Origin: Alphaproteobacteria bacterium
Lineage (GTDB): Bacteria; Pseudomonadota; Alphaproteobacteria; GM7ARS4; G965262615
Assembly (NCBI GenBank): GCA_965262615.1
Contig: OZ253545.1
Span: forward strand, 64,001-128,000
Direction: 5' to 3'
DNA length: 64,000 nt
Position 1 is the stretch's first letter; each line of letters opens with the position of its first letter. The translations under genes and the position numbers were made by a program. The notes beneath the pieces are model-generated. The model ran no database searches and was not told the DNA's origin. It worked only from the letters and a program-made list of their open reading frames with translations. This document shows, in pieces, positions 28,984 through 60,008 of this stretch.

Positions 28984-29831
28984 CCATCGCTGTGGCGGGC
29001 GCGAGCAATGCCGGCAAGTCCACATTGCTCAACCGCCTGTTGGGCAGAAATATGAGCATCACCAGCAGCCGTCCTCATACCACGCAAAAAACGCTCACTT
29101 TTCTTCACGACAATGGCTCCCTCTGGCTGGATGGACGCGGCACATCATCTCATATGCGCATCGCCAATGCTCCTGCCACATCGGTGATGCCTCATGCCGA
29201 TGTCACACTCTTGGTGATTGACAGCCGCCAAAACTGGAATGAAAAGATGTGCTCTGATGCCCAAAATCATTATGGCAAGCGGGACGGAAAACTCTATGTG
29301 GTGCTGAATAAAATTGACAAAGTGCAAAAAAGCAAGCTGCTGCCTCTTGCCGATGACCTGTGTTCGCTGCTCAAGGCGGACGGCTGTTTCATGGTGTCGG
29401 CAAAGACGGGCAGTGGATGCGATGGCTTGTGGTATCAATTGCAGCAGCACAAAAAAAAAATGGATACCGCGCGCCGAGATGCCCTGCCGCCTCCCATGAA
29501 TGATGAACAACTGGCGCGCGAGTTCACGCGCGAAGCCTTGTTTTATCTATTGCGAGACGAATTGCCCTATGAGATTTATGTGTCCAGTCAATCTTTTGAA
29601 CAAGAAGGAACGCGTCTGATTGTGACGCAGGAATTGCTCACCGACAAAAAAAGCCGCAAAGCCATGATGATTGGCAAAAAAGGGGCGATGATCAAACAAA
29701 TCGGCAGCATGACGCGCCTGCGGATGCGGGCTTTTTTTCAAAAAAAAGTGGATGTTTTTTTAACCGTGCGTCTGATAAAACACGGTCAGTTCATATCATT
29801 GCAGCAGGAAGAATTGCGAGGCTCACTATGA
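28971..29831 (+). CDS. era: GTPase Era (divergent)
   Basis: G1 GASNAGKST, G2 PHTT, G3 DGRG, G4 NKID, SAKTG, KH domain ELPY..IGKKG.MIK.IG. Confidence 0.9.
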   Translation: MQGVTIAVAGASNAGKSTLLNRLLGRNMSITSSRPHTTQKTLTFLHDNGSLWLDGRGTSSHMRIANAPATSVMPHADVTLLVIDSRQNWNEKMCSDAQNHYGKRDGKLYVVLNKIDKVQKSKLLPLADDLCSLLKADGCFMVSAKTGSGCDGLWYQLQQHKKKMDTARRDALPPPMNDEQLAREFTREALFYLLRDELPYEIYVSSQSFEQEGTRLIVTQELLTDKKSRKAMMIGKKGAMIKQIGSMTRLRMRAFFQKKVDVFLTVRLIKHGQFISLQQEELRGSL

Positions 29832-30746
29832 TTTTAGGCTATGTTTTCACGGGACAAGGCTCACAAAAAGTGGGAATGGGGCGCGATTTCTATGACCATC
29901 CCGCAGGACGGGCGGTCTATGAGGAGGTTAATGATGCTCTGCGGTACGATTTGGCACAGCTGGCTTTTGCCGGCGATGAGGCGACTCTGCGTCTGACTCA
30001 TCACGCCCAACCCGCCATCATGATGGTGAGCATGGCAGGCTACCGTGTGCTAGAAGCGATGTTGGGGAAATCTTTGACTCCGCATTTTTTTGCGGGACAC
30101 TCATTGGGAGAATACAGCGCATTGATTGCCAGTGGCGCGCTATCATTGAGTGATGGGGCGCGCCTTTTGAAAATCAGAGGCGAGGCGATGCAGGCGGCGG
30201 TTGCTGAGGGCGAGGGCGGCATGGCTGCCATCATTTGCGGGCTTTTTTTCAAAAAAAAGTGGATGTTTTTTTAACCGTGCGTCTGATAAAACACGGTCAG
30301 TTCATATCATTACAGCAGGAAGAATTGCGAGGCTCACTATGATTTTAGGCTATGTTTTCACGGGACAAGGCTCGCAAAAGGTGGGAATGGGACGCGATTT
30401 TTATGACCATCCCGCAGGACGGGCGGTCTATGAGGAGGTTAATGATGCTCTGCGGTACGATTTGGCACAGCTGGCTTTTGCGGGCGATGAGGCGACTCTG
30501 CGTCTGACTCATCACGCCCAACCCGCCATCATGATGGTGAGCATGGCGGGCTATCGCGTGATGGAGGCGATGCTGGGGAAATCTTTGACTCCGCATTTTT
30601 TTGCCGGACACTCATTGGGAGAATACAGTGCATTGATTGCCAGTGGCGCGCTGTCATTGAGTGATGGGGCGCGCCTTTTGAAAATCAGAGGCGAGGCGAT
30701 GCAGGCAGCCGTTGCTGAGGGCGAGGGCGGCATGGCTGCCATCATT
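29725..30746 (+). repeat. 511-bp tandem duplication of era 3' end + fabD 5' part (29725-30235 / 30236-30746)
   Basis: Direct alignment at offset 511; about 18 substitutions, nearly all synonymous. Confidence 0.95.
29828..30274 (+). pseudogene. fabD: Truncated fabD copy
   Basis: First 136 codons of FabD, then switches into duplicated era sequence and stops. Confidence 0.9.
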
Positions 30747-31277
30747 GGCTTGACACACGATGATGTGATGCCGTTGTGTCATGAGCAGGATGATGCTCAC
30801 GGCATCATCACCATCGCCAATGACAACAGCGCGCAGCAGGTGGTGGTGTCCGGTCATAAAGCGGCGGTGGAGACATTGTGTATGACGGCAAAAGAACGAG
30901 GTGCAAAACGCGCCATCATGCTGGAGGTGAGCGCGCCCTTTCACTGCCCCTTGATGAAAGACGCACAAAGCGTCATGGCGGACGCTCTTGACCAAGTGAC
31001 ATGGCAAACGCCCAGCGCGCCCATCATGACCAATGTCACGGCACATTACGAGACAGACCCCGTCCAATTGAAGCAATTGCTGGTGCAACAGGTCACCGCC
31101 ATGGTGCGCTGGCGAGAAATGATGGCGCGCATGGCGAAGGATTCTGTCTCATTGATGCTGGAGCTGGGACCCGCCAATGTGCTGGGTAATTTGGCGCGCC
31201 GCTCAGGGCATGATTTTGCCACTCACAGCATTACCGATATGGCATCACTGGAAGAAGCTCTGCCGTTGCTGGCGTGA
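30339..31277 (+). CDS. fabD: Malonyl-CoA:ACP transacylase
   Basis: F.GQGSQ.VGMG, AQPAI, GHSLGEYSA, RG.AMQ, VSAPFHC.LM, VRW, ELGP. Confidence 0.97.
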   Translation: MILGYVFTGQGSQKVGMGRDFYDHPAGRAVYEEVNDALRYDLAQLAFAGDEATLRLTHHAQPAIMMVSMAGYRVMEAMLGKSLTPHFFAGHSLGEYSALIASGALSLSDGARLLKIRGEAMQAAVAEGEGGMAAIIGLTHDDVMPLCHEQDDAHGIITIANDNSAQQVVVSGHKAAVETLCMTAKERGAKRAIMLEVSAPFHCPLMKDAQSVMADALDQVTWQTPSAPIMTNVTAHYETDPVQLKQLLVQQVTAMVRWREMMARMAKDSVSLMLELGPANVLGNLARRSGHDFATHSITDMASLEEALPLLA

Positions 31278-31280
31278 CAC

Positions 31281-32108
31281 ATGGAATGGCGTGATGAGGC
31301 ACTGGTGGTGGCGTGTCATTGGCATGGCGAACACGCCGCCATCTTGTCGGTATTGACCAAAGGGCGCGGCGTGTGGCGCGGACTGGTGCATGGCGCGCAC
31401 GGCAAAAAAACACGCGCCCTCATTCAACTGGGATTTCCTCTCACGGTGACTCACAGAGCGCGCACCGCCGACCAATTGGGGGTGTTTCGGCTGGATGCCT
31501 CACCCCATTGCGGCTTTTCCTATCGGCTGCACAGAGGACATCGCTTGGCGATGCAATCATCGGCGTGTGCCTTGGTGGCGTTGTTGTGTCCCGAACATCA
31601 ACCTCATGAGGCGATTTTTAGCTCTTTGTGTGATTTATTCATGCGACTGGCAAACAATGAAGCAGAGCATCATTATGTGGCGTGGGAATATGATTTGTTG
31701 CGCCATCTCGGCTATGGCACGGATATTAGCCGTTGTGCACTCAGTAAACAGATACCCGTCTCTTTTGTGTCCAAAAAGAGCGGGCGGGGAATTCATGCAT
31801 CGCACATGCAAGAAAAATGGCGTTCTCATGTGTTGCCGGTGCCAGCGTTTTTATCGCACTATGCTCAAAGCCAGACCATGAAAGATGACGCCATTGACGC
31901 GTATGAGCTCAAACAAGGTTTATCTCTCACGGGTTATTTTCTTCACCAATGCGCGCTGCACCGTCATCGCCCTCTGCCACAGGTGCGGGCATTGATTATG
32001 CGTGTCCCTCAGCAAGGGGTAAATAATCATGCCCGCGCCAGTAGCGATACAAAAAGCGCGCCATTTCAATCACCATCACCCACATCAGAGCGGCAAAAAA
32101 CAGCGTGA
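31281..32108 (+). CDS. recO: DNA repair protein RecO
   Basis: MEWRDEA.V...HGE..AI...T...G..RGLV.G, RAR...LG, PE..PH, WE..LL..LGYG, LTGYFL. Confidence 0.9.
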   Translation: MEWRDEALVVACHWHGEHAAILSVLTKGRGVWRGLVHGAHGKKTRALIQLGFPLTVTHRARTADQLGVFRLDASPHCGFSYRLHRGHRLAMQSSACALVALLCPEHQPHEAIFSSLCDLFMRLANNEAEHHYVAWEYDLLRHLGYGTDISRCALSKQIPVSFVSKKSGRGIHASHMQEKWRSHVLPVPAFLSHYAQSQTMKDDAIDAYELKQGLSLTGYFLHQCALHRHRPLPQVRALIMRVPQQGVNNHARASSDTKSAPFQSPSPTSERQKTA

Positions 32109-34026
32109 TGGCGGCATTGAGATAGTTATTAAAAATGCGCCGTGAGACATCACCCACAGCGGCGGCGGCAATCAGACCGCTATCCAGTTGTGCTTGCAGA
32201 TGGGAGGCTTGGGCGAGAAAGCCGATGCGAATATCCTCATGGGCGATTTTATGCCATGCGGCGGTGGTGGTGACAATCAGCATCCACACAAGAGGAAGGG
32301 CGGTCGTCCAGACATAGCGTCCCTTGCCAGATTTGACGATGACGCTCGTGCCCACGCACAAGGCAATCACACCCAACATTTGATTGGATATGCCAAACAG
32401 CGGCCATAGGCTGTTGATTCCTCCCAAAGGATCAATTGTTCCCATATAGAGAAAATACCCCCACGCCGCACAAAAGACGGCACTGGCAATGATGGTGCTT
32501 TGGACGGAACTGGTTTTGCGCAAAGCAGGCACGAAGGGACCCAAGGCATCTTGGAGGAGAAATCGTCCCACGCGCGTGCCGGCATCCAATGCGGTGAGAA
32601 TGAACAAAGCTTCAAACATGATGGCAAAATGATACCACATGGCAATCCACTGCTCGGATGTGGCTTTGGAGAACAAACTTGCCATGCCCACCGCCAAGGA
32701 TGGTGCGCCGCCCGTGCGTGCCAACAAAGTCCCTTCACCCATTTGGCTTGCAAGATTCTGCATCTGTTCAGGGGTCACCACAAATCCCCATGAAGAGATG
32801 GTGGCGGTGGCTTCCTGCAAAGAAGCTCCCACGATTCCTGCGGGGCTATTGATGGCAAAAAAGACCCCCGGCTCCAGCACACACGCGGCAATCATTGCCA
32901 TGATGGCAACGCCCATTTCCACCGTCATGGCACCATAGCCGATGAAGCGCGCGTCCTTTTCATCGGCAAGCAATTTGGATGTGGTGCCCGAACACACCAA
33001 TGCGTGAAAGCCCGATATCGCTCCACACGCAATGGTGATAAAAACAAAAGGAAACACCGCACCCGCAAAGATGGGCCCCGTGCCATCAATGAAGGATGTG
33101 AGTGCGGGCATTTTCATGTCAGGGCGAATGATGACAATGGCGATGGCGAGCAGAAACACAGTGCCTAATTTCATAAAGCTGGAGAGATAGTCTCGCGGCG
33201 CAAGAAGCATCCACACGGGGATGGCGGATGCGGCAAAGCCGTAAAGAATAAGCAAGAGGGCAAGGCTCTCGCCACCGAAATCAAACCACTGCCGCCACAC
33301 AGGATGGGCATCCACCATGCCGCCCGCCGCCACCGATAGCATCAACAACGACACGCCAATGAGAGTGCCCTCCAGAATACGCCCCGGGCGAATGGAGCGC
33401 ATATAAAACCCAATGAGAATGGCGATGGGAATGGTGGCAAAGACGGTGGCAGTCGCCCATGGGCTATGCTTCATGGCATTGACCACCACCAATCCCAACA
33501 CGGCGATGAGAATCACCATGATGGCAAGCACCCCCACCATGGCGGCACTGCCGGCGGTGCGTCCCAATTCGTCGCGCGCCATCGTCCCAAGACTGCGACC
33601 ATTGCGTCTCAAAGAACATGTGAGAATGACCAAGTCCTGCACGCATCCGCCCAATACCGCGCCCACCAAAATCCATAATGTCCCCGGCAGATAGCCAAAT
33701 TGTGCCGCAAGGGTGGGACCAATGAGAGGACCTGGGCCCGCAATGGCGGCAAAGTGATGTCCAAACACAATCCAGCGATTGGTGGGAACAAAGTCACGCC
33801 CATTGTTCAAACGCACGGCGGGCGTGGTGCGAGATGAATCCAGTGCCAGAACGCGCGCCGCCAAAAATGCACTGTAAAAACGATACGCCAGCAATCCCAC
33901 ACACAAAGCGGCGGTCAAAAACCACACGCTGTTGATGGTCTCGCCGCGATGAAGGGCAATGGTCGCCACCGATGTCGCTCCCACCACCGCCACCAGTCCC
34001 CATGAAATCATGCGGGCAAGGGTCAT
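31996..34026 (-). CDS. cstA: Carbon starvation protein A family transporter (CstA/BtsT-like)
   Basis: FGHHFAAIAG.GPL.GP.LAAQ.GYLPG, WMLLAPRDYLS, TIACGAISGFH, RTGGAPSLAVG, WYHFAIMFEALFILT. Confidence 0.96.
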   Translation of the reverse strand: MTLARMISWGLVAVVGATSVATIALHRGETINSVWFLTAALCVGLLAYRFYSAFLAARVLALDSSRTTPAVRLNNGRDFVPTNRWIVFGHHFAAIAGPGPLIGPTLAAQFGYLPGTLWILVGAVLGGCVQDLVILTCSLRRNGRSLGTMARDELGRTAGSAAMVGVLAIMVILIAVLGLVVVNAMKHSPWATATVFATIPIAILIGFYMRSIRPGRILEGTLIGVSLLMLSVAAGGMVDAHPVWRQWFDFGGESLALLLILYGFAASAIPVWMLLAPRDYLSSFMKLGTVFLLAIAIVIIRPDMKMPALTSFIDGTGPIFAGAVFPFVFITIACGAISGFHALVCSGTTSKLLADEKDARFIGYGAMTVEMGVAIMAMIAACVLEPGVFFAINSPAGIVGASLQEATATISSWGFVVTPEQMQNLASQMGEGTLLARTGGAPSLAVGMASLFSKATSEQWIAMWYHFAIMFEALFILTALDAGTRVGRFLLQDALGPFVPALRKTSSVQSTIIASAVFCAAWGYFLYMGTIDPLGGINSLWPLFGISNQMLGVIALCVGTSVIVKSGKGRYVWTTALPLVWMLIVTTTAAWHKIAHEDIRIGFLAQASHLQAQLDSGLIAAAAVGDVSRRIFNNYLNAAITLFFAALMWVMVIEMARFLYRYWRGHDYLPLAEGHA

Positions 34027-34220
34027 GACTAAAAAATGTCTCCCGAGTCACGAAAACGGCGCGCAGCGCGCACACGATACAAGCGAGAACGCCGCACATT
34101 ATTGCCCGTTATATCCTCGCCAAAAACGCCCTTGACAAAGAGTCGCCAAATCTGTGCTATTGTGATGATCGCGCGAAGCATACCATCATCATGCCGCACG
34201 CTCATTGGAAAATCAATCTC

Positions 34221-34973
34221 ATGAATTCAGGCAAATTATCACTGGCGGGCAAAAAAGCTTTGATTACGGGGGCGAGTGGCGGCATCGGCTCGGCTATGAG
34301 CGATGCTTTTGTGGCGGCAGGGGCGGTGGTCACCTTGCACGGCAGACGCACCGACGCATTGCAAAAACTCAAAGACAATTATGGCGACAAGTGTCATACC
34401 ATTGCCTGTGAGCTGACCGACAGTGACAGTGCCACATCACTGGTGACGCAAAGTATCTCTCACTGGGATGGCTTGGATATTGTGGTGAGCAATGCCGGCG
34501 TGACGCGCGATCAATTGCTGCTGCGTCTGAAGGATGAGGCATGGCTTGAGGTTCTTGCGGTGAATTTGACGGTGGCGATGGCACTCACGCGCGCGGCACT
34601 GCCGGTCATGACCAAACAACGCTGGGGACGCGTCATCATGATGAGTTCTGTGGTGGCGGCAATGGGCAATGGCGGACAGAGTGCGTATGCCTCTGCCAAA
34701 GCGGGCATGGGCGGCTTGGTGCGGTCGGTGGCACAAGAGGTGGGCAAGCGCGGCGTCACCGTCAATGCCATCGCCCCCGGATTCATTGACACCCCCATGA
34801 CCCAGTCATTGCCCGATGCCGTCAAAGAGACCTACAAAAACGCCATTCCTTTAGGATGCTTTGGCGAACCTGATGATGTCGCCGCCGCTGCGCTCTATCT
34901 GGCTGGCGACAGCGGACGCTACATCACGGGACAAACGCTTCACATCAATGGCGGCTTGTGGATGGGTTCATAA
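34221..34973 (+). CDS. fabG: 3-oxoacyl-ACP reductase
   Basis: TGASGGIG, NAG.TRD, YASAK, NAIAPGFI.T.MT, YITGQTLHINGG. Confidence 0.97.
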   Translation: MNSGKLSLAGKKALITGASGGIGSAMSDAFVAAGAVVTLHGRRTDALQKLKDNYGDKCHTIACELTDSDSATSLVTQSISHWDGLDIVVSNAGVTRDQLLLRLKDEAWLEVLAVNLTVAMALTRAALPVMTKQRWGRVIMMSSVVAAMGNGGQSAYASAKAGMGGLVRSVAQEVGKRGVTVNAIAPGFIDTPMTQSLPDAVKETYKNAIPLGCFGEPDDVAAAALYLAGDSGRYITGQTLHINGGLWMGS

Positions 34974-35038
34974 AGCTCTTGAGTTAGACTCGCTTATGTA
35001 TTATGGCATAGTCATCAATCAATTCTGAATGGAGACGA

Positions 35039-35278
35039 ATGATGAGCAAAAATGCTGAACGAGTGAAAAAAATCATTGCCGACCATCTGAGCATAGAGGA
35101 GAGCAAGGTGACGGACGCTGCCAATTTCATTGATGATTTGGGCGCAGACAGTTTGGATACGGTGGAGCTGGTGATGGCTTTTGAAGAAGAATTCGGCTGC
35201 GAAATTCCTGATGATGCCGCCGAGAAGATTTTGACCGTCAAAGATGCGATTGCTTACATTGATAAGCACGGCTCTTGA
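35039..35278 (+). CDS. acpP: Acyl carrier protein
   Basis: [21 protein letters not shown]. Confidence 0.99.
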
Positions 35279-35287
35279 TGGTTTTTA

Positions 35288-36577
35288 ATGGAACGGGTTG
35301 TCGTCACGGGACTGGGAATGCTGACGCCACTGGGCTGTGGCGTGGCTTCGTCATGGCGCTGTCTTATTGAGGGCAAGTCTGGCATTGGCAAGGTCACGCT
35401 TTTTGATGCCAGCGATCATCTCTCCAAAGTGGCGGGCGAGATTCCCCGTTCTGATGGTCAGATGGTGGGGGGGGAGGACGATGTTCTTGTCATGGATGAT
35501 CATCTCACGCCGCGCGAACAAAGGCGTGTTGACGAATTCATCGCCTATGCCATGATCGCCGCCCGCCAAGCTCTGCAAGACAGTGGATGGGATGGTGTCT
35601 TGCAAAAAGATGAGGTGGCACAAAAACGCACAGGCGTGCTGATTGGCTCCGGCATCGGCGGACTGGACACCATTGCCCGCAACGCGCTCATTCTTGACAA
35701 ACAAGGAACAAGACGCATATCGCCGCTTTTTATTCCCTCGTGCTTGATTAATTTGGCATCCGGCAATGTGGCAATTGAGCATAACATTCGCGGCCCCAAT
35801 CACTCGGTGGTGACGGCGTGCTCTACCGGCGCCCATGCCATTGGCGATGCCATGCAGATGATTCGGCTCGGCAAGGCGGATGTGATGGTCGCGGGAGGCG
35901 CAGAAAATGCCATTTGTTCTCTGAGCTTTGCCGGCTTTGATGCCTTGCGAGCATTGTCATCCAAATTTAATGACACCCCCACCCAAGCATCCCGTCCGTG
36001 GGATGAACGGCGCGATGGCTTTGTCATGGGCGAAGGGGCGGGAGTCATGGTGCTTGAATCCCTTGACCACGCCCGCAAGAGAGGCGCGCCCATCCATGGA
36101 GAGGTGGTGGGATATGGAATGTCAGGGGACGCTCATCATGTCACCGCGCCTCTTGAAGATGGCGGCGGCGCACACGATGCCATGCGTGCCGCTCTTGATG
36201 ATGCCGAGCTCAATGCCGATGATATTGATTACATCAATGCCCATGGCACATCCACCCCTTTGGGGGATGAGGCGGAAATTCATGCGGTCAAACAATTGTT
36301 TGGCAACCATGCGTCTCGGCTTGCCATGTCATCCACAAAGTCTGCCATCGGACATTTGTTGGGCGCGGCGGGCAGTGTGGAGGCAATCTTTTCGTTGCTT
36401 GCCATGCGCGATCAAACAATCCCGCCCACTCTCAATTTAGACACACCCTCTGCCTGCTGTGACGGCATTGAGCTTGTGCCGCATGAATCTCAGCGGCGCA
36501 AGTGTCGCACTGTGCTGTCCAATTCCTTTGGGTTTGGCGGCACCAACGCCTCTTTGATTTTTGCCCATGCGCCATAG
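35288..36577 (+). CDS. fabF: Beta-ketoacyl-ACP synthase II
   Basis: VTACSTGAHAIG, RDGFVMGEGAG, YINAHGTST, STKS.IGHLLGAAG, SNSFGFGGTN. Confidence 0.98.
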   Translation: MERVVVTGLGMLTPLGCGVASSWRCLIEGKSGIGKVTLFDASDHLSKVAGEIPRSDGQMVGGEDDVLVMDDHLTPREQRRVDEFIAYAMIAARQALQDSGWDGVLQKDEVAQKRTGVLIGSGIGGLDTIARNALILDKQGTRRISPLFIPSCLINLASGNVAIEHNIRGPNHSVVTACSTGAHAIGDAMQMIRLGKADVMVAGGAENAICSLSFAGFDALRALSSKFNDTPTQASRPWDERRDGFVMGEGAGVMVLESLDHARKRGAPIHGEVVGYGMSGDAHHVTAPLEDGGGAHDAMRAALDDAELNADDIDYINAHGTSTPLGDEAEIHAVKQLFGNHASRLAMSSTKSAIGHLLGAAGSVEAIFSLLAMRDQTIPPTLNLDTPSACCDGIELVPHESQRRKCRTVLSNSFGFGGTNASLIFAHAP

Positions 36578-37676
36578 TGGTGCACAAGCCGCCATCAGTG
36601 TTACTCTCGTTTTATGGGTGGTTGCCACCGCCCATGTCACCCATTATGTCATGACTTTTTTGCAAGCCAGCTCGCACACGCAATCTGTGTTGGTCACCAT
36701 TGAAAAAGGCTATGGCGCAAACAAAACCGCGTGGACTCTCAAGCGAGCCGGCGTGATTGATGACGCTATTTTATTTCGCACCATGGTGGTGGCACTGAGA
36801 GCAACGGGATCATTGAAGGCGGGACGCTACACCATCCCCGCTCATGCCAGCCCACTGATGATTTTGCAACAAATCATCAAAGGCAAAGCGGAACTGCTCC
36901 GAGTCACCATTCCCGAAGGCATCACTCTTGCCGAGGCTCTTGCCATCATTCGTGCCGCCCCTGCGCTGACGGGGGAAATTACAATTCCTCTCGCGGAGGG
37001 AATGTTGCTACCCGAGACTTATTTCTACAGTGAAGGCAAAAGCCGCAATGCCCTCATCACCCACATGGGAGACGAAGCGAGCCGCATCCTGCAAGAGGCA
37101 TGGCAAAACCGAGCCCCCAACCTGCCGTTGCGTAATCCGCAAGAGGTGATGGTGCTGGCTTCCATCGTGGAAAAAGAGACATCCCTTGACTATGAAAGAC
37201 GCCTGGTCGCGGGCGTGTTTATTCATCGCTTGCGGAAAAAAATGAAGCTGCAGTCCGATCCCACCGTGATCTATGGCATCACACTGGGCAGAAGTTCATC
37301 GTTGAATCGTCCCATTCGCATGAGCGATCTCAAGAAAAAAACGGCGTGGAACACCTATGTGATTGACAGCCTGCCTCCAACGCCCATTTGTTTGCCGGGG
37401 CGCGCCTCCATTGAGGCGGTGACGCAACCCGAGGAAACCGATTTGTTGTATTTTGTCGCCGATGGACGCGGCGGTCATATTTTTGCCGCCACCCTTGAAG
37501 AGCATGAACGCAATGTCAAAAAATGGCGCAGTGTGGAACAACGGCGCAAAGAGGAAAAACGAATCGCCACCATCAAAAGCGACCTCAAAGGACTTCTCAA
37601 ACCGCGCCCGTGGCGACCGCAAAAAAAACAGCCACCACAGCCCTCATCACCCAGCCTTAATCTTTTCGCCCCATGA
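36567..37676 (+). CDS. mltG: Endolytic murein transglycosylase
   Basis: EG.L.PETY, LASIVEKET, LQSDPTVIYG, NTY...LPPTPI, LYFVADG.GGH.F. Confidence 0.96.
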   Translation: MRHSGAQAAISVTLVLWVVATAHVTHYVMTFLQASSHTQSVLVTIEKGYGANKTAWTLKRAGVIDDAILFRTMVVALRATGSLKAGRYTIPAHASPLMILQQIIKGKAELLRVTIPEGITLAEALAIIRAAPALTGEITIPLAEGMLLPETYFYSEGKSRNALITHMGDEASRILQEAWQNRAPNLPLRNPQEVMVLASIVEKETSLDYERRLVAGVFIHRLRKKMKLQSDPTVIYGITLGRSSSLNRPIRMSDLKKKTAWNTYVIDSLPPTPICLPGRASIEAVTQPEETDLLYFVADGRGGHIFAATLEEHERNVKKWRSVEQRRKEEKRIATIKSDLKGLLKPRPWRPQKKQPPQPSSPSLNLFAP

Positions 37677-38308: not shown

Positions 38309-39047
38309 ACAGCTGTTCGGGGCGACAATGTCCGTCAATGTCGGCTTGTGCCAGCACATCATGGATGTTCATGTCACCATCAAAGTCCTTGAGACTATTG
38401 TGCACCATCTTGCGCCTTTGACTGAACAAATGACGCAAAACATCACCCAACAAGGCATCCTCGTCTGATGAGAGAGAAGCGGCGCGCGGTGTCATGGTGA
38501 GCAGGCGAGACTTCACCTGAGGCGGCGGATGAAACGCGGCGCGTCCGATGGAACGCAACAACACAATATGCCACGCCAGCTGTGCCATCACGGAAACTCG
38601 TCCATAGTGTTTATTGCCTTCGCGCGCCACCAAACGCTGAGCGATTTCCTCTTGCACCACAAAAGTCAAACGCGCACACCCATAATGACGAAAGCGCATC
38701 ATGAGCGGCACCGCAATGTGATAGGGCAGATTGCCCACCACCGCCACAGGACGATGGCATGTCACATCATCCAAAGGAATTGTCAGGGCATCCTCAATCA
38801 TGACCGTCAAACGCTCATCTCTCAACGCCATAAGCACACTCTTCATGCGTTTGTCATATTCAATGGCAATCAATTGTCTCAGCGGATGCGCGAGCAGAGC
38901 CTTGGTGAGAGCTCCAGACCCCGCGCCCAGTTCAATCACGGATGGTTCGTTCAAGCCCTCCAGTGCGTGGCGAGCAATCAATTGATTAAGGCGCGGCTCT
39001 AACAAAAAATGCTGCCCGTATGATTTTTTAGCAGCGGGAAATGTCAT
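38253..39047 (-). CDS. rsmA: 16S rRNA dimethyladenosine transferase
   Basis: KK.YGQHFL, E.G.G.G.LT, EYD, GNLPY.I, YGR.SV, F.PPP.V.S, F.QRRK. Confidence 0.96.
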   Translation of the reverse strand: MTFPAAKKSYGQHFLLEPRLNQLIARHALEGLNEPSVIELGAGSGALTKALLAHPLRQLIAIEYDKRMKSVLMALRDERLTVMIEDALTIPLDDVTCHRPVAVVGNLPYHIAVPLMMRFRHYGCARLTFVVQEEIAQRLVAREGNKHYGRVSVMAQLAWHIVLLRSIGRAAFHPPPQVKSRLLTMTPRAASLSSDEDALLGDVLRHLFSQRRKMVHNSLKDFDGDMNIHDVLAQADIDGHCRPEQLSIETLCRLVRVMAESVPS

Positions 39048-39191
39048 GCCAGCCCTCATGCCAGCCCTCTACTCTGTGCCAACCGATACCCCATGCCCAT
39101 AGCGGCACACAAACTGGCATCACGAAATGTCATGCCAGCCCTCTGCTCTGTGCCAGCCGATGTCCCATGCCCATGGCGGCACACAAACTGG
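39038..39191 (-). repeat. Duplicated pdxA-stop/rsmA-start junction (68-bp copy 39124-39191; copy 39038-39117 has an extra 12-bp internal duplication)
   Basis: Both copies read CCAGTTTGTGTGCCGC.ATGGGCATGGG...GGGCTGGCATGACATTTC on the minus strand; 5 substitutions. Confidence 0.9.
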
Positions 39192-50410: not shown

Positions 50411-50463
50411 GAAAAAACGCGAGCAATTGTTACTTGGTGCAACACAAAAAAAGATGGCATCTC

Positions 50464-50492: not shown

Positions 50493-50498
50493 GGAACG

Positions 50499-51458: not shown

Positions 51459-51532
51459 AGTCGCTCATTCATCATCTTTTCAGTTTTTTTTGCTAGGGGT
51501 GCTTTCATCACAACCTTGATGGGAGTTTTTTT

Positions 51533-52192: not shown

Positions 52193-52207
52193 GAGGTGCT
52201 ACTTTTT

Positions 52208-53114
52208 TTAAATCTCATGATCCCAAGCAGATGAGTTTTTAAGAATCAATTCTGACCCATCTAGCGCAATCACATTTTCCACAAAATCCAAGAAATCACG
52301 ATTTTCGAGAAGAGCAAGACGATTAATGCTCGCCAAGTCTAAATTAGACCTTTCTCTTGCTGGAATGACAACACCATTGCTATCAGAATTTGCATTTGGA
52401 TTGTATTGAATGACTCCAATGCCATGCAAGGATGACAAGGGGTTCAAATCGCTCAAAACTTCTTGTTCAAAAATCCCCACAAGGTAGCCGTAATGTGCCC
52501 AACTGGAATTAGCAACTGCCTGAAAAAACGCATCGCGCGCATCACCCCGTTCAACCTTTGTCTTAACCTCAAATGACCACAAGCGACATCTGTTGCGCGC
52601 CAAACTGCCCTCCCATTTTCTTAATTTTTTCATGCCAACCACTACTCAAGCATTCCACACCGATAATATCAGGGTGTAACCATTTGTTGACACCAGTGTC
52701 CCTCTTTTTTGATTTTTTGTCATCTATCCTTTTACAGTAGATGTCCATCTCATCTTGAAGAAATTGCATAAAGGGAACATATGTTTCCTCCTCACTTGGC
52801 TCACCTGTGGAAGAAGGGGGGACTGCATCGCCCCCTTCATCAATTTCTTCAGTGTAATAATACTTTCTTGGGCGTGATGCCTCAATTTTGATTTTGCCCT
52901 TACCTAATTTGACAATTTTCTTATGGTAGCGATAAATTCTTTTTTCGATTAACCTCTCCTTTGTTAAATCTTCATTACTTCTTTCTAAAATTTCTTCAGC
53001 TGTATCAGAAAATTTTTCAATATATTTCCGCGCCAAATCCAAAGGAGTAAATCTCACATCAGGATTTTCCTTTAAAATTTCTGCAACTCTATCCGCCAAC
53101 GATTTTCTCATCAC
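52208..53114 (-). pseudogene. HrgA/COG2958-like PD-(D/E)xK protein, frameshifted near 52590
   Basis: NKWLHPDIIG in the upstream frame; LWSFEVK...FFQAVANSSWAH.GYLV...L..LHGIGVI in the downstream frame; low GC. Confidence 0.75.
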
Positions 53115-53144
53115 CGTTTCTCCTCCATCTCTTCACAATGTACA

Positions 53145-53828
53145 TCAATCAGGCTCATTATCCCACTTCTTTGGAGTCGCCCACATCCCTACTAAAACAA
53201 GAAAATAAAACATTGCTTTAACTAACAAAACAATCTCTTTCACAAAAGGAAGCTTGGTAAGATTATCTTGAAACCTTTGCTTCACTTGCTCTTTCGTGGG
53301 AGATGTTTTCTGCTCTGCATCTCCAATCTCCCCTTCATTGACTATGTCAGTGTAAGGGATTTCTCTTGGTGGGTGAGCCAATGTAGACAAGCGAAAATTG
53401 TCTTTAAAATAAGGTTCAGAAAACAAACCTTTCATAGCTTGCCTACGAGCCAAATCTTGCTCCTGCAAAGCTTCCGTCAGCTTCACAATTTCTGGAGAAT
53501 GGAATGCCATAGCGTCACGAAGTTTTGCAAGTCTAGCCTCTTCTGCTTTGTGCTTCTCCGCAATTTCTAGGATAGAGGAGGGTGTCATAGCATTATGAAG
53601 TTTTGCAAGTCTAGCCGCTTGTGCTGCTTCCTTCCCCATAATTTCTAGGGAAAAAGGAAGTGTCACAGCGTCATGAAGTTTTGCAAGTCTAGCCGCTTGT
53701 GCTGCTTCCTTCCCCATAATTTCTAGGGAAAAAGGAAGTGTCATAGCGTCATGAAGTTTTGCAAATTCAGCCTCTTGTGCCGTGCATCCAAGCGGATTTT
53801 TCGGTTCTATTTTCGACAATTCCATCAT
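53145..53828 (-). CDS. Hypothetical protein with 26-aa tandem repeats and C-terminal hydrophobic segment
   Basis: ARLAKLHDAVTLPFSLEIMGKEAAQA repeats; TTGTAA-17-TATTCT promoter at 53866-53838. Confidence 0.65.
   Translation of the reverse strand: MMELSKIEPKNPLGCTAQEAEFAKLHDAMTLPFSLEIMGKEAAQAARLAKLHDAVTLPFSLEIMGKEAAQAARLAKLHNAMTPSSILEIAEKHKAEEARLAKLRDAMAFHSPEIVKLTEALQEQDLARRQAMKGLFSEPYFKDNFRLSTLAHPPREIPYTDIVNEGEIGDAEQKTSPTKEQVKQRFQDNLTKLPFVKEIVLLVKAMFYFLVLVGMWATPKKWDNEPD
53510..53775 (-). repeat. 78-bp in-frame tandem repeat (~3.4 units)
   Basis: AYGAAGTTTTGCAA recurs on + at 53517, 53595, 53673, 53751. Confidence 0.93.
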
Positions 53829-53872
53829 GTTCCAGCCAGAATAAAACAACCGCCAACTTATTACAAGGCTTT

Positions 53873-53915
53873 TATGATTATCGCCGTTTCTTCTTCATTT
53901 TTTGCGCGGCATGGC
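53873..53915 (-). repeat. Degenerate second copy of the secA 3' end (direct repeat of 54747-54787)
   Basis: tatgattatcgccgtttcttcttcattttttgcgcggcatggc vs tatgactatcgccgtttcttcatttttttgcgcggcatggc. Confidence 0.88.
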
Positions 53916-53919
53916 GGCG

Positions 53920-54228
53920 TTACCGGTCGATGGCTGAGCCCACAATCGCACCAATAATCGTGGTGATGACATAGCCCGGCAAGGTCAGAAGAATTAAAAG
54001 CTCTGTGGATGGCACAATGCCCCACCAAATATAGGCAACGCAAAAAGACGCAAGAACAGCCAAATAAAACCCTCCCGTCCAACGAAGGGCTCTTGTGAGC
54101 TCCCAAAAACGCAGCTCCCCCAGCCGCAAATCAGACTTTTCCTCATCTTCAATACTCTCATCAGGAGGCGGCTTTTGCAGTCGGCTCGTGGATGAAGAGG
54201 TTTGCTTATTTTTTTGGTTAGCCTTCAT
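53920..54228 (-). CDS. Small two-TM membrane protein, candidate Panacea-partner toxin
   Basis: 102 aa, polar N-terminus then two hydrophobic helices; ATG overlaps the end of the Panacea gene. Confidence 0.6.
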   Translation of the reverse strand: MKANQKNKQTSSSTSRLQKPPPDESIEDEEKSDLRLGELRFWELTRALRWTGGFYLAVLASFCVAYIWWGIVPSTELLILLTLPGYVITTIIGAIVGSAIDR

Positions 54229-54682
54229 GACAAAATTCTTTTCTAATCTCATCATGGTCAATAACAGTGCCAGCCCCTTTCTTAAAGGCTTGAAACCATG
54301 CCCCCTCATGCTCATGAGTTAATGCCACCAGCTGATAAGCATCATACTTGCTGTATGTGGCAATCGTTTTTCTGATGGAATCATCATTCCGCAAAACAGG
54401 ATACGCCCGCCCACTCTTCATTTTATGCTCAATGACACTGGAACGGCGCGAGCCCACATCCTTGTAATGATGATACACATCAGGAATAACGGGACCATGC
54501 TTCCAAGCCTCAAATTCCAGATAGGGCAAAAAAACACCGCCATCGCGCAAATAAACCACATAATTGAGATACAGCATTTTTTGCAACTCCAAATGAGTCA
54601 GCTGCCGCCCGCGCTCGCCCGCCTCAACAAGCAACGCATTCACCCGTGCCACCAAATGCCGCCTGCGATACTCATCTGCCAT
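54218..54682 (-). CDS. Panacea-domain (DUF4065/GepA/SocA-like) antitoxin
   Basis: LTHLELQKMLY, FEAWKHGPV.P.VY, L..LTH....W; own extended -10 TGATATAAT (54734-54726) and GGAGA SD. Confidence 0.9.
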   Translation of the reverse strand: MADEYRRRHLVARVNALLVEAGERGRQLTHLELQKMLYLNYVVYLRDGGVFLPYLEFEAWKHGPVIPDVYHHYKDVGSRRSSVIEHKMKSGRAYPVLRNDDSIRKTIATYSKYDAYQLVALTHEHEGAWFQAFKKGAGTVIDHDEIRKEFCHEG

Positions 54683-54751
54683 GATGTCTCTCCCTTTGCA
54701 TCATCTATTGCCTAGATATAGTGGCATTATATCACATTTCATCATGTATGA

Positions 54752-57358
54752 CTATCGCCGTTTCTTCATTTTTTTGCGCGGCATGGCAAGACGGCGTTTG
54801 GTGTCTTTCTTGCGAGGTGCGGATGTTTGTGTGCCGTGTGAAACCCGCCGCGCCGCCATTGGTGACGCTGGCATGGAAGCATCCCGCCCCTCAATCGCCA
54901 AATGACACAACGCCGCCGTCACATGATTTTTCAAACTCTCCAACATACCGCCAAACAACGAAAACGCCTCGCCGCGATACTCATTGAGAGGGTCACGCTG
55001 GGCATACGCCCGCAACGATATGCCCTGACGCACATGATCCAATGTCTGCAAATGCTCCTTCCACACGCGATCTAAAAAATACAGCAACAACCGCTTTTGC
55101 GCGAGGCGAATGGCATCCTCGCCGTAGAGCTGTTTTTTACGCAGCATCACATCATCGCCAATGGCAAGCAATCGCTCACACACAATGGCATCATCCATCG
55201 GCACTTCCTTAATCCAATCCGCAAGGGGCACCGATGCCGCGAGCAAACGCAAACAGGTGGCATGCAATGCCGTGATGTCCCACTGCTCTGGCAAGGACTC
55301 GGGCGGTGCGGTCGCCGCCACCGCATCGCGAATGGCATCCTCCCGCATACCCTCGGTGATGTCGGCGACATCATCGCTGTCCAAAATATCCCGCCTTTGT
55401 TCATAAATGACGCTGCGCTGTTCGTTCATCACATCATCAAAGCGCAAAAGATTTTTGCGTATGTCAAAATTATGAGCCTCCACCCGAGCTTGCGCCTTGG
55501 CAATCGCCTTATTGACCCACGGATGAGTGATGGCATGCTCATCGGGAACGCCAAACCGCTCCATCATGGAATCAATGCGCTCGGCGCCAAAAATACGCAT
55601 CAAATCATCCTCCAAAGACAAAAAGAACATGGAACTGCCGGCATCCCCCTGCCGCCCCGAGCGTCCCCGTAGCTGATTGTCAATGCGGCGGGATTCATGA
55701 CGCTCCGTTCCCACCACACACAAGCCGCCCGCATTTTGAGCCTTCTGCTTGAGCCGCTCCACTTCCTTTTCAATCTCGGCTTGGCGAGCGGCGCGCTTTT
55801 TCTCGTCATTGATAGCACCACACTCTTGCTGCACCCGCATATCCACATTGCCGCCCAATTGAATGTCCGTGCCGCGCCCCGCCATGTTGGTGGCAATGGT
55901 GACCGCACTGGGCATACCCGCACCGGCAATAATCTGTGCCTCCTTTTCGTGATAGCGAGCATTGAGAACATCATGAGCAATCCCCTCCTTTTTCAACAAG
56001 GACGACAACTCCTCAGACTTTTCAATGCTCACCGTTCCCACCAACACCGGCTGATGTCGCTCATGACACTCCTTAATCAATGACACAATGGCTTTCAATT
56101 TGTCGGTGCGTCGGCGGTAGATCTCATCATCATGATCCACCCGCACCATTTCTCTATGAGTGGGAATGGCAACCACCCGCACCCCATAGATGGAAGCAAA
56201 CTCCTCTTGTTCCGTCATGGCTGTGCCGGTCATGCCTCCCAGCTTGGCGTAGAGACGAAAATAATTCTGAAAGGAAATGGATGCCAGCGTCTGATTTTCC
56301 TGCTGCAAAGGCACCTGCTCTTTTGCCTCCAACGCCTGATGCAATCCGCCCGAAAAGCGTCTGCCCTCCATCATGCGCCCCGTGAATTCATCCACCAGCA
56401 TCACCTGATTTTGATGCACCATGTAATCCACATCCCTTTGAAACAAAAAATGCGCCCGCAGCGATTGATTCACATGATGCACCAAATTGACATGCGCCAT
56501 GTCATAGAGCGAGCCCTCCTGCATCAGTTTCTCACGGCGCAACGCCGCCTCCACCTTCTCCACACCCCCCTCGGTCAGAGACACCGAACGGCTTTTTTCA
56601 TCCTTCTCACAATCCTCCGCCGTCAAGGTGGAGACGAGTCCATTGATTCGCACATAGAGCTCCGATGATTCATCCGCCGCACCCGAAATCACAAGGGGCG
56701 TGCGAGATTCATCAATGAGGATGGAATCCACCTCATCCACAATGGCGTAATGCAAAGGACGCTGCACCACATCATTCTTCTCAATCACCATGTGATCGCG
56801 CAAATAGTCAAAACCGAACTCGTTGTTTGTGCCGTATGTGACATGAGCCTCATACGCCGCTCGTCTCTCTTGTGATGGCACACTGGGAATGACGCATCCC
56901 ACCGTCAGTCCCAAGGCGTTGTAAATCTGTCCCATCCACGCGGCATCTCGCTGGGCGAGATAGTCATTGACGGTCACCACATGAACGCCCTTATTGGTCA
57001 AGGCATTCAAATAAACCGCAAGGGTGGATGCCAATGTTTTGCCCTCTCCGGTTTTCATCTCGGCAATCATGCCGCGATGCAAGGCAATGCCGCCCATCAA
57101 TTGCACATCAAAATGACGCTGCCCCAAAACACGCCGTGCCATCTCGCGCACCGCCGCAAAGGCAGGCACGAGCAATTCGTCCAGCGCGCGTCCATTGTGC
57201 AGTTCTTCTTGCCATGCTCGCGTTTGCTGCACAAATTCGTCATCGCCCCGCTGACCCCACGCCCCTTCGGCATCATTGATCGCCGCCACCAATGGCTGAA
57301 AGGTCTTCACCAAACGCTCATTGGATGAGCCAAAAATCTTCTCCAACAATGATAGCAA
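54752..57358 (-). CDS. secA: Preprotein translocase ATPase SecA
   Basis: EMKTGEGKTL, VTVNDYLA.RD, DEVDSILIDE.RTPL, IATNMAGRGTDI, RRIDNQLRGRSGRQGD; probable TTG start. Confidence 0.99.
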   Translation of the reverse strand: MLSLLEKIFGSSNERLVKTFQPLVAAINDAEGAWGQRGDDEFVQQTRAWQEELHNGRALDELLVPAFAAVREMARRVLGQRHFDVQLMGGIALHRGMIAEMKTGEGKTLASTLAVYLNALTNKGVHVVTVNDYLAQRDAAWMGQIYNALGLTVGCVIPSVPSQERRAAYEAHVTYGTNNEFGFDYLRDHMVIEKNDVVQRPLHYAIVDEVDSILIDESRTPLVISGAADESSELYVRINGLVSTLTAEDCEKDEKSRSVSLTEGGVEKVEAALRREKLMQEGSLYDMAHVNLVHHVNQSLRAHFLFQRDVDYMVHQNQVMLVDEFTGRMMEGRRFSGGLHQALEAKEQVPLQQENQTLASISFQNYFRLYAKLGGMTGTAMTEQEEFASIYGVRVVAIPTHREMVRVDHDDEIYRRRTDKLKAIVSLIKECHERHQPVLVGTVSIEKSEELSSLLKKEGIAHDVLNARYHEKEAQIIAGAGMPSAVTIATNMAGRGTDIQLGGNVDMRVQQECGAINDEKKRAARQAEIEKEVERLKQKAQNAGGLCVVGTERHESRRIDNQLRGRSGRQGDAGSSMFFLSLEDDLMRIFGAERIDSMMERFGVPDEHAITHPWVNKAIAKAQARVEAHNFDIRKNLLRFDDVMNEQRSVIYEQRRDILDSDDVADITEGMREDAIRDAVAATAPPESLPEQWDITALHATCLRLLAASVPLADWIKEVPMDDAIVCERLLAIGDDVMLRKKQLYGEDAIRLAQKRLLLYFLDRVWKEHLQTLDHVRQGISLRAYAQRDPLNEYRGEAFSLFGGMLESLKNHVTAALCHLAIEGRDASMPASPMAARRVSHGTQTSAPRKKDTKRRLAMPRKKMKKRR

Positions 57359-57414
57359 GACTCATCTCCCTTCATGCTTGTCTTGTGCTATAAGACACCA
57401 TACCATCTCATAGC

Positions 57415-58957
57415 ATGAAAAACAGCGTTATCATCATTGACTTTGGCTCGCAAGTCACTCAGCTGATTGCGCGGCGTGTGCGCGAGGCGGGTGTCTATGG
57501 CATCATTGTGCCGCCGCCTTGTTCCATGGAGGACATCACCCGCCATCACCCCAAAGCCATCATTCTGTCGGGAGGCCCCGCATCAGTCGCCAACAATGAT
57601 GTATCTCTGCCATCTCAGCTGTTTGAGTCTGACATTCCCATTTTGGGCATTTGTTATGGCATGCAGCTGATGGTGACCATGCTGGGCGGCACGGTCACGC
57701 CCGCCCGCCACCGAGAATATGGCGCAGCACCATTGACCGTCACCGACAGCTGCCTGCTCACCCAAGATATCTGGCACAAACATGACACCCCCACCGTCTG
57801 GATGAGTCATGGGGATTCCGTCACCACACTGCCGCACGGGTTTCGTGATATTGCCCACAGTGGCAACCATCATCATAGTCGCCATCGCCAATGACGAGAA
57901 AAAACGCTACGGCTTGCAGTTTCATCCAGAGGTCACCCACACGGAGCATGGCACACAATTGCTGCATCGCTTTATTTTTGCCATTGCTCAATGCGAGAAA
58001 AATTGGTCAATGAATGACTATCAAGACCAAGCAATTTGTGATATTCGCGATTTTGTGGGCAATCAAAAAGTTCTGGTGGCGTTATCGGGCGGGGTGGATT
58101 CCGCCGTCATGAGTCTTCTCATTCACAAGGCAATCGGCAAACAGATGATTCCCATCGCCATTGACACCGGATTGTTGCGTCATGACGATGTGACCCACAT
58201 TGAGAACTTTGCAACGCGTCATTTGGGTGTTCCCGTCACCATTCATGATGCCAGTTCTCAATTCATCCGAGCTTTACGCGGCGCGACCGATGGCGAGCAA
58301 AAAAGAAAAATCATTGGCACATGCTTCATTGATGCCTTTGAGCGTGTCACCCGCAAGGCGATGCCGCCCTTTTTGGCTCAAGGGACGCTTTATCCCGATG
58401 TGATTGAATCTCATTCGGTGCACGGTGCGCCCTCGGCAACCATCAAATCCCATCACAATGTGGGCGGGTTGCCTGACCATATGAAGTTTCAATTGATTGA
58501 ACCGTTGCGCGCCCTCTTCAAAGACGAGGTGCGCGCCCTTGGGGCAACATTGGGCATGGAGAAGCGTTTTTTGGAGCGGCATCCGTTTCCCGGCCCTGGT
58601 CTTGCCATTCGCATTGCGGGCGAGGTCACGCCTGATCGCCTCGCCGTGGTGCGTCACGCCGACCGCATTTATCGTGACCAATTGGACAAGGCTGAGCTCA
58701 CCGACAAAATCTGGCAAGCACTGGCAATCTTGTTGCCCGTCACCAGTGTGGGTGTCATGGGCGATGGACGCACCGAAGGCATGACCATCGTTCTCAGAGC
58801 CGTCACATCCCAAGACGGCATGACCGCCGACAGCTTCCCATTTTCCCATGAATTCCTCACCCAATGTGCCACCGCAATCATCAACAATGTTGCCAATGTG
58901 ACGCGCGTTCTCTATGATGTCACCTCCAAACCCCCCGCGACAATTGAATGGGAATAG
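57415..58957 (+). pseudogene. guaA: GMP synthase, frameshifted near 57870 (true lesion or assembly error)
   Basis: Frame 1: DFGSQ.TQLIARR, GICYGMQ, VWMSHGD. Frame 2: [45 protein letters not shown]. Confidence 0.9.
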
Positions 58958-58965
58958 TGAAAATC

Positions 58966-59799
58966 ATGCAAAACAAACTCAAAAAATGGACGCGCAAAGG
59001 TTATCTGCGCCCGCTCCATCTCATCTACCGATTGGCGCGCAGATATATCATATACTATGAAGAATTCTCTTTTACCCTTGACAAAAACGGGGAACGCTTG
59101 ATTCTGAAAAAATTGAGCCCCTTTCAGATGCAGACCTTCTTTGATGTGGGAGCTCATACTGGCGAATGGTCACTCATTGTGAGAGAATATTTTCCATCCG
59201 CCACCATTCACGCCTTTGAAATTTCAAAAGCTACTTTTGGGCGATTGAAGAAGAATGCCCATCAAAAAAATATCATCCTCAACAACTACGGGCTGGCACA
59301 CAAAAATGACACGGTGCAATACAGAGATTATGAAAAATATCCCGGTAGCAATACGGTGCTGGATGCCCCTCTTAGTCATCCTCTATTTGGCAAGGCGGAT
59401 GTCAAAAAAACAAAAATTAAAACGGGTCACCAGTATTGCCGAGACCACCACATTGACCACATTGATTTTATCAAAATTGATGTGGAAGGAGCGGAATATC
59501 TCGTTCTGCAAGGGTTGATTCCTCTGCTGAAGGAACAAAAGATTACGGTCATTCAGTTTGAATACGGCTACACCAGTGGTGACTTGCATTTTTTGATGAA
59601 AGATTTTTATGATTTTTTCGCGAGCTATGGCTATAGTGTGGGTCCCCTCAAATTCACAGGCGTTCTTTTTGGTGAATTTAACGAGTACTTGAATAGTTTC
59701 AGGTCGGGACCTAATTTTGTGGCAGTGCTTTCTCACAGACAAGACATCATGGATGCCATTCGCGGCACCCCAATTAGGAGTTATCCTAGTGGCTTGTAG
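58966..59799 (+). CDS. FkbM family SAM-dependent methyltransferase
   Basis: NGE, FDVGAH.GEW, IHAFE, IDFIKIDVEGAE..VL.G, IQFEYG; lower GC than flanks. Confidence 0.9.
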   Translation: MQNKLKKWTRKGYLRPLHLIYRLARRYIIYYEEFSFTLDKNGERLILKKLSPFQMQTFFDVGAHTGEWSLIVREYFPSATIHAFEISKATFGRLKKNAHQKNIILNNYGLAHKNDTVQYRDYEKYPGSNTVLDAPLSHPLFGKADVKKTKIKTGHQYCRDHHIDHIDFIKIDVEGAEYLVLQGLIPLLKEQKITVIQFEYGYTSGDLHFLMKDFYDFFASYGYSVGPLKFTGVLFGEFNEYLNSFRSGPNFVAVLSHRQDIMDAIRGTPIRSYPSGL

Positions 59800-59812
59800 C
59801 ATAGAAAAAATG

Positions 59813-60008
59813 CCGAAGGCATGACCATCGTTCTCAGAGCCGTCACCTCCCAAGACGGCATGACCGCCGACAGCTTTCCATTCCCTCATGAATTCCTCGC
59901 CCAATGCGCCACCGCAATCATCAACAATGTTGCCAATGTGACGCGCGTTCTCTACGATGTCACCTCCAAACCCCCCGCGACAATTGAATGGGAATAGTGA
60001 AAATCATG
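59813..60008 (+). repeat. 196-bp second copy of guaA 3' end + spacer + ATG (direct repeat of 58773-58968)
   Basis: Alignment at offset 1040 with 8 substitutions; both copies end GAATGGGAATAGTGAAAATCATG. Confidence 0.96.

Follow-up and report, generated by a model that had tools for sequence, protein, structure and literature searches.

Introduction

The original work on homology-facilitated illegitimate recombination (HFIR) was reportedly done in Acinetobacter, Streptococcus, and Pseudomonas. In its classical outcome, recipient DNA next to the homologous anchor is replaced or deleted. In the minimal mobile elements of Neisseria, different whole-gene cassettes occupy the space between one set of conserved genes, and double homologous crossover swaps them with no need for mobility genes. 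Here we analyzed a 64-kb stretch of DNA from an uncultured alphaproteobacterium (positions 64,001 to 128,000 of contig OZ253545.1, hereafter the window), in which the 3' ends of four housekeeping genes (era, pdxA, secA, and guaA) are each duplicated as direct repeats, two of them around cargo genes. Like the Neisseria elements, these are cassettes at conserved genes without mobility genes, but in Neisseria no duplicated gene end is left. We suggest, with about even confidence, that the repeats were left by additive recombination between this lineage and close relatives, in which homologous pairing in a gene end was combined with one illegitimate joint.

HFIR has been proposed for the stacked type VI secretion system immunity genes of Vibrio cholerae and for the orphan 3' ends of Rhs and contact-dependent inhibition loci (PMC5361080). 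An E. coli assay built for HFIR yielded a PCR product diagnostic of a flanking duplication in 56 of 60 clones; 14 were sequenced, with duplications of 109-950 bp, and the duplication is scored as not HFIR (PMC3240628). Such Campbell-type (single-crossover) integration of a circular molecule places an insert between direct duplications and needs no site-specific recombinase, as appears to be the case here. The window differs from that assay in that the events are natural, the copies are diverged alleles of 43-511 bp, two of the four lack an insert, and no circular form is known.

Two further systems involve comparable units. In the lpl cluster of Staphylococcus aureus the evolving unit is described as running from the 3' part of one open reading frame (ORF) across the spacer into the 5' part of the following one (PMC2568036). 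In Streptococcus pneumoniae transformation gives rise to tandem duplications, and a known route is for imported DNA to integrate unequally or between chromatids (PMC3784515). The era-fabD repeat of the window is exactly an lpl-like unit, and unequal crossover or interchromatid integration are possible routes to it. However, these cases concern paralogue clusters or duplications of 100-900 kb bounded by insertion sequences (IS), not sub-kb units of single-copy housekeeping genes. Duplicated gene ends with mainly synonymous differences also bracket foreign DNA at e14 (PMC13626634) and GIsul2 (PMC9376610), the guaA end being a known target. Compared with these two elements, the window has no integrase among the ORFs scanned, zero to two cargo genes per site, four targets at which no shared motif was seen, and repeats of up to 511 bp that reach into the next gene. 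No description of the pattern was found in the literature on additive integration and illegitimate recombination or in that on integrase-free partial duplication and direct repeats. It is a variant of known recombination outcomes.

Four Housekeeping Gene Ends Are Duplicated

The 64-kb window was aligned with itself by blastn, giving 12 rows. Four are exactly the direct repeats that a preliminary description of this DNA had reported (era-fabD, pdxA-rsmA, secA, and guaA). The other eight belong to a 33-nt array at 834-1087 (four rows), a 78-nt array at 53508-53780 (three rows), and a palindrome (one row). A more sensitive local scan (23 rows, with one hit in shuffled chunks) found no additional convincing repeats, including older and more diverged scars. 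No N characters are present in the window. Each of the four repeats spans the stop codon of a gene. Gene content agrees with the earlier statement that two pairs enclose cargo, an FkbM-family methyltransferase gene in one case and a Panacea antitoxin gene with a partner in the other, while two pairs are empty. Both cargo genes are complete and close against the joints, with a GC content of 0.42 (FkbM) and 0.48 (Panacea) versus 0.54 for the core. Homology ends at the ATG of the downstream gene or 5 nt past the stop codon, and the gene-end copy is joined directly to the cargo. The features are as follows.

29725-30235, plus strand: repeat 1 copy A, the end of an intact era followed by a truncated fabD (self-alignment, ORFs)
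30236-30746, plus strand: repeat 1 copy B, an orphan era 3' fragment (35 codons) followed by the start of the intact fabD (30339-31277)
39130-39195, minus strand: repeat 2 copy 1, the true pdxA 3' end (gene 39130-40131), then 7 nt of the rsmA start
39044-39121, minus strand: repeat 2 copy 2, an orphan pdxA 3' end (39056-39121) plus an extra 12-nt junction copy (39044-39055) before rsmA
54747-54787, minus strand: repeat 3 copy 1, the last secA codons (gene 54752-57358), stop codon, and 5 nt
53916-54746, minus strand: cargo 1, GC 0.48, a Panacea/SocA-like antitoxin gene (54218-54682) and an ORF (53920-54315) (profile matches, hydropathy)
53873-53915, minus strand: repeat 3 copy 2, an orphan secA 3' end with two mismatches, an A-run one A shorter, and an extra GAA
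58773-58968, plus strand: repeat 4 copy 1, with the final 182 coding nt of guaA, its TAG stop codon, an 8-nt spacer, and the FkbM start codon ATG
58966-59812, plus strand: cargo 2, GC 0.42, a complete FkbM-family methyltransferase gene (58966-59799) and 13 nt up to the joint at 59812/59813
59813-60008, plus strand: repeat 4 copy 2, an orphan guaA 3' end, stop codon, spacer, and the start ATG of a small ORF whose product looks secreted (60006-60338)

Repeat 1 is an exact tandem of 511 bp (29725-30235 and 30236-30746) with 18 mismatches and 96.5% identity by blastn. Its unit joins 107 nt from the era 3' end to 408 nt from the fabD 5' end across an ATGA stop/start overlap. The joint at 30235/30236 is blunt, with 0 nt of microhomology. 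Sixteen of the 18 mismatches are synonymous and the other two fall in a single Leu/Met codon. The truncated fabD ORF (29828-30274, 148 aa) has a Pfam Acyl_transf_1 match and reads out of frame into copy B. The usual gene run is rnc-era-recO. Here fabD lies between era and recO, apart from fabG (34191-34973) and fabF (35288-36577) with cstA in between (region 28240-36577), and fabD itself may have been placed behind era at some earlier time.

Repeat 2 is much shorter, with 66 bp, six mismatches, and a spacing of 74 by blastn (39056-39121 and 39130-39195). On the minus strand pdxA overlaps, through ATGA, 7 nt from the rsmA start; the orphan pdxA end, the 12-nt junction copy, and the real rsmA follow in this order. 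The 12-nt stop/start junction unit is thus present three times (39044-39055, 39056-39067, and 39130-39141). All ATGA pdxA/rsmA overlaps are kept, giving a 25-codon mini-ORF from 39133, and the orphan pdxA end is in frame with that ATG. A fourth occurrence of the 12-nt unit lies in mltG/yceG (36842-36853, a 13-16 nt match); it has no further homology and is probably due to chance.

Repeat 3 aligns over 43 bp with two mismatches and one gap by blastn (53873-53915 and 54747-54787). On the minus strand the secA end is followed by the 831-bp cassette, the 43-nt orphan secA end, and three low-GC ORFs (GC 0.41). The product of 54218-54682 matches Pfam PF13274 (E=3.5e-14) and the NCBIfam SocA_antitoxin model (E=2.9e-23), the latter below the cut-off of that model. 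The second cassette ORF (53920-54315) has a hydrophobic C-terminus (residues 82-129), and its stop codon abuts the secA remnant. A third copy of the secA end was looked for near ompW and none was found. Promoter-like hexamers (54754-54726, minus strand; consensus matches only) reach across the secA end into the first part of the Panacea cassette. Two ORFs (52569-53114 and 52208-52642, minus strand) overlap by 74 nt in different frames, like halves of one low-GC gene. PD...E-x-K-like motifs are visible by eye on either side of the break, and neither half (52208-53114) has a family match.

Repeat 4 covers 196 bp (58773-58968 and 59813-60008) with eight mismatches and 95.9% identity by blastn. 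The first 34 nt and the last 53 nt are identical between the copies. The FkbM gene matches Pfam PF05050 and TIGR01444, and two homologous protein entries, P0002 and P0003, share its N- and C-termini. The orphan guaA end is a 58-aa ORF that still matches GMP_synt_C (E=1.3e-23). Upstream, guaA itself is found in two overlapping ORFs in different frames (57415-57894 and 57809-58957), which match positions 1-151 and 138-512 of the GMP synthase profile. The frame shift lies near 57860-57895 at a CATCATCAT stretch in the amidotransferase domain, which is not a homopolymer, and the split guaA is either a pseudogene or a sequence error. Promoter-like hexamers occur inside both guaA-end copies (58890-58918 and 59930-59958; consensus matches only). 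Judging from such matches, signals for expressing the downstream genes may lie within the duplicated ends.

The Copies Diverged as Parts of Working Genes

We compared the differences between copies at synonymous and non-synonymous positions. Pooled, the changes are 27.5 synonymous versus 6.5 non-synonymous (P=7e-13). The secA repeat is too short for the test, and the pdxA entry takes in one codon outside the repeat. The fabD part alone has 15.5 synonymous and 1.5 non-synonymous changes where 24% synonymous is expected, with a ratio of non-synonymous to synonymous rates (dN/dS) of 0.03 (P=1.3e-9). In the guaA copies the counts are six and two (P=0.003), and four of the six differences inside the pdxA repeat are synonymous. 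Synonymous divergence (dS) is about 0.16-0.18 for the long repeats, and transitions outnumber transversions 26:6, as in natural divergence. The dN/dS comparison had been proposed as a check in the preliminary description, and it gave 0.03-0.15 between copies.

Since the differences are near-exclusively synonymous, the copies are alleles that diverged as working genes. That they did so in separate lineages before being juxtaposed is firmly supported. In-place duplication with one copy under selection and the other decaying predicts 38% synonymous changes and is rejected (P=1.6e-7 pooled, P=2.3e-6 for fabD). The earlier view of the copies as two formerly functional alleles, rather than one gene end and its decaying duplicate, holds on both counts. 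Random placement relative to gene ends without synonymous bias had been named as evidence to the contrary; within the window, four of four repeats span stop codons and the synonymous bias is present. A diversity-generating retroelement was considered and rejected, as the mismatches are of all kinds and not adenine-specific, and no reverse transcriptase is encoded among the 62 ORFs scanned (see below).

The allele-like divergence could also have arisen in two steps, with identical duplications or insertions forming in place and a diverged strain later overwriting one copy and its flank by homologous recombination. This would account for synonymous-only divergence without a special joint-forming import, and where genes are densely packed a duplication is neutral only if it spans a junction. 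The two long repeats are diverged to a like degree (3.5% and 4.1%), as imports from a single co-existing population would be, but the short repeats are about 9% diverged, not 4%. Two events would be needed at each of four loci, and the arrival of cargo between the copies is left unexplained. We regard the two-step history as rather improbable.

The Joints Are Illegitimate and No Recombinase Was Found in cis

To the 62 window ORFs scanned with Pfam belong neither ORFs of <110 aa in 1-28.5 kb nor many shorter or overlapping ORFs elsewhere. None of the 62 encodes an integrase, transposase, or reverse transcriptase. The preliminary description had stated that the window lacks integrases, transposases, and inverted repeats. 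The first two parts stand at 0 of 62 ORFs, whereas short imperfect inverted repeats are present. As to the hallmarks of transposons and IS elements, there is thus no transposase in the 62 ORFs, and inverted repeats are only short and imperfect. The recombination and repair genes in the window are recO, addAB-like genes, lexA, and xseA only.

The four joints share no recombination motif. Microhomology ranges from 0 to about 6 nt, with 0 at joint 1, up to about 6 nt at joint 3, and about 0 at joint 4, for which the donor side is unknown. The joints are illegitimate, and none of the 62 scanned ORFs supplies a recombinase in cis. Integron-like or hairpin attC sites were considered and rejected. 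Folding of six joint and repeat segments is not significant relative to shuffles (z-scores from +0.72 to -2.35), and no IntI is encoded among the 62 ORFs. The lowest z-score (-2.35) is due to a 5-bp hairpin created at the guaA joint. This perfect hairpin (ATGCC-GAA-GGCAT, 59808-59822) behind FkbM lies by an A-run and is picked up by a minus-strand terminator scan.

The two cargo-bearing pairs could instead be left and right attachment sites (attL/attR). The integrative elements would be small or decayed, would insert at gene 3' ends, and would bring a replacement end, with the integrase elsewhere or lost and the empty duplications unrelated. The topology is that of icd/icdC around e14, where the gene carries an element-borne end, followed by cargo and an orphan native end with mostly synonymous differences (PMC13626634). 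A substitute end with mainly synonymous differences is seen at guaA (six versus two changes). The guaA 3' end is an established attachment site. GIsul2 uses a 19-bp attB there with the core GAGTGGGA (PMC9376610), and the guaA of the window has GAATGGGA at the same codons. However, the window's guaA repeat begins 185 nt upstream of the stop codon, far from a GIsul2-type core. The 43-nt secA repeat is of the size of an att site, and a tmRNA gene followed directly by a single low-GC AIPR gene points to island traffic in the window. Against attachment sites speak the integrase count of 0 among the 62 scanned ORFs, cargo of just one or two genes, and the lack of a motif common to the four joints. 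The cargo-free 511-bp and 74-nt duplications, which have the same allele-like divergence, would also be left unexplained. An origin as attachment sites appears quite unlikely to us.

FkbM in Relatives and the Integrity of the Assembly

Related genomes were compared using contigs from one genome per species. Of the 598 matched stretches listed, 586 could be confirmed, and the 80 best of these were used; closer relatives may lie beyond the matches listed. Among these 80 loci the best SecA identity is 62%, and the top matches are metagenome-assembled genomes labelled Alphaproteobacteria. When 21 window proteins were compared with seven of the 80 loci for guaA-secA synteny, only secA (seven of seven) and accA (one locus) matched, leaving no such synteny to compare.

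For the FkbM protein, an identical entry is found on a 36,962-bp contig, and homologues share 83% (P0002) and 76% (P0003) identity, the next best being at 51%. P0002 starts with MGITKIV, which aligns with the window's MGIVKIM, an out-of-frame reading of the guaA end plus spacer. In the guaA frame, the first codons of P0002 read Trp-Glu-stop. As the P0002 N-terminus reads the guaA end in another frame, FkbM probably lies directly behind guaA in that lineage too. The preliminary description had proposed that a donor carries a different gene behind the same core gene, and for guaA-FkbM this N-terminus supports it. The other neighbour is also kept elsewhere. The ORF behind the orphan guaA end, orf116, has one homologue, P0241, at 90% identity. 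The entries P0003 and P0241 are both associated with a longest contig of 159,461 bp, suggesting that one relative may carry homologues of both FkbM and orf116; the two differ in divergence (76% versus 90% identity).

These records also bear on whether the repeats are artefacts of assembling a mixture of strains, either by joining contig ends of two strains or by giving identical repeats the variants of two strains. In favor of an artefact, the nearest relatives that were recovered are metagenome-assembled genomes without exception, and a divergence of 3.5-4% is typical within a species. Joint 1 is also blunt without microhomology, and two window genes are frameshifted. For the truncated FabD ORF, the protein collection gave nothing identical or nearly so (best 61% identity among the 120 listed of 1327 matches below the E-value cut-off), while FkbM is present on the 36,962-bp contig. 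Yet that 37-kb contig belongs to another record and also argues the other way, as at least one guaA repeat must have been traversed there. The window contains no N, and a novel joint sequence cannot arise from a k-mer or overlap graph without reads containing it. Ordinary reads exceed the 74-nt and 43-nt repeats in length, so that differences within these are phased directly. It would be a great coincidence if four errors had each left the genes, the ATGA couplings, and the cargo ORFs undamaged. An assembly artefact is decidedly doubtful in our judgment. If the joints were assembly errors, the signature would be useful as a flag for strain-mixture misassembly.

A Proposed Model of Additive Recombination

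Additive recombination, the reading we favor, would proceed as follows. A segment from a lineage about 4-9% diverged, bearing a core-gene end, would pair by homology with the resident gene end. The donor segment would be added rather than swapped in, and its far side would be closed by one non-homologous joint. The likeliest routes would be a single (Campbell-type) crossover that integrates a circularised fragment, or an HFIR-like event that is one-ended and has its joint upstream of the anchor. Two such events would have brought the donor's gene behind a core gene, FkbM behind guaA and the Panacea antitoxin with its membrane partner behind secA. The era-fabD and pdxA-rsmA events would have brought no cargo. 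Scars would be found at stop/start junctions mainly because only there do both neighbours and the signals for translational coupling and promoters stay intact. We infer the donor, the route by which DNA entered, the recombination pathway, and the order of events.

Like HFIR, the events combine one homologous anchor with one illegitimate joint, add genes behind a conserved gene, push older material downstream, and involve no integrase. HFIR was the mechanism suggested in the preliminary description. The anchor and the illegitimate joint (0 to ~6 nt) fit, but the anchor end is duplicated and recipient DNA is not replaced or deleted. The loci are also housekeeping rather than toxin loci, and DNA uptake by transformation would be an assumption for this organism. 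On analysis of this geometry, the flanking duplications appear to be a better fit to single-crossover integration than to classical HFIR. The duplication geometry of a single crossover is seen at events 3 and 4, and at event 1 if taken as a 511-bp unit. The implied circles are 1040 bp, 874 bp, and 511 bp, whereas a 74-nt unit is implausible as a circle.

Several points weigh against the model. With a unit of just 74 nt, event 2 fits no circle model and needs another route. The 43-nt homology at secA is short for a RecA-dependent crossover. Both cargo joints (two of two) lie <=13 nt from the cargo stop codon, which is tidy for random illegitimate joining. If the relative with the 159,461-bp contig has the same composite locus, the guaA event is old and the fresh look of the orphan end needs explaining. 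The evidence for all four joints is the assembly itself, and as no near-identical entry exists for the 148-aa FabD ORF, joint 1 lacks independent support.

Why Gene Ends

Repeats of this kind are more frequent in the window than in a control set. About seven comparable pairs were found in 80 unrelated loci (1.33 Mb), so that 0.34 are expected per 64 kb versus the four seen (Poisson P(>=4)=4e-4, a rough control with pairs classed by eye). Two control pairs that we inspected (L058 and L011) are not allele-like gene-end duplications.

Genes in this region abut or overlap. A duplication within a gene breaks that gene, while one across a stop/start junction leaves both neighbours intact. As only junction-spanning duplications keep both genes intact, selection alone can explain the gene-end location. 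The retained ATGA couplings at pdxA/rsmA and the promoter-like hexamers in both guaA ends fit such a filter. Core-gene ends had been proposed earlier as special, stackable cassette slots. The first part is not established, as selection in a dense genome predicts the same location; nor is the second, which rests on one extra 12-nt copy and the low-GC ORFs behind the secA remnant. Integrase-free capture is a plausible reading, in which single-crossover geometry and selection probably play a larger part than any dedicated slot mechanism.

In a more far-reaching version, which we consider unlikely, this lineage would gain genes without recombinases as a rule. Alternative downstream neighbours from relatives would be merged in series by one-ended recombination with core-gene ends as slots, and orphan ends would be kept fresh by overwriting from insert-less strains. 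If this were true, old composite loci, possibly shared with the relative that has the 159,461-bp contig, could look young.

Except in a small number of competent pathogens, it is poorly documented how accessory genes, for example those for toxin-antitoxin pairs or modification enzymes, enter core neighbourhoods singly and without mobile machinery. As a signature of additive recombination, duplicated gene ends with allelic divergence would be simple and could be searched for in any genome or metagenome. For annotation, an orphan gene end or truncated ORF next to an intact housekeeping gene may be a scar of recombination and not a product of decay.

Other Features of the Window

Rfam matches in the window are limited to a tmRNA and one tRNA. 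The tmRNA gene is of the permuted alpha type and ends at 61777 according to ARAGORN. The single low-GC (0.37) AIPR/AbiU-like defence gene (61782-63566; region 61454-63566) starts 5 nt after the tmRNA end. No flanking repeat of the tmRNA end and no integrase were found beyond the AIPR gene, where the next ORF runs off the window end.

Two in-frame tandem arrays are also present. Three 78-nt units (53498-53780, minus strand) lie in a 234-aa ORF behind the secA remnant, and eight 33-nt units (768-1120, minus strand) lie inside the ORF at 681-1367.

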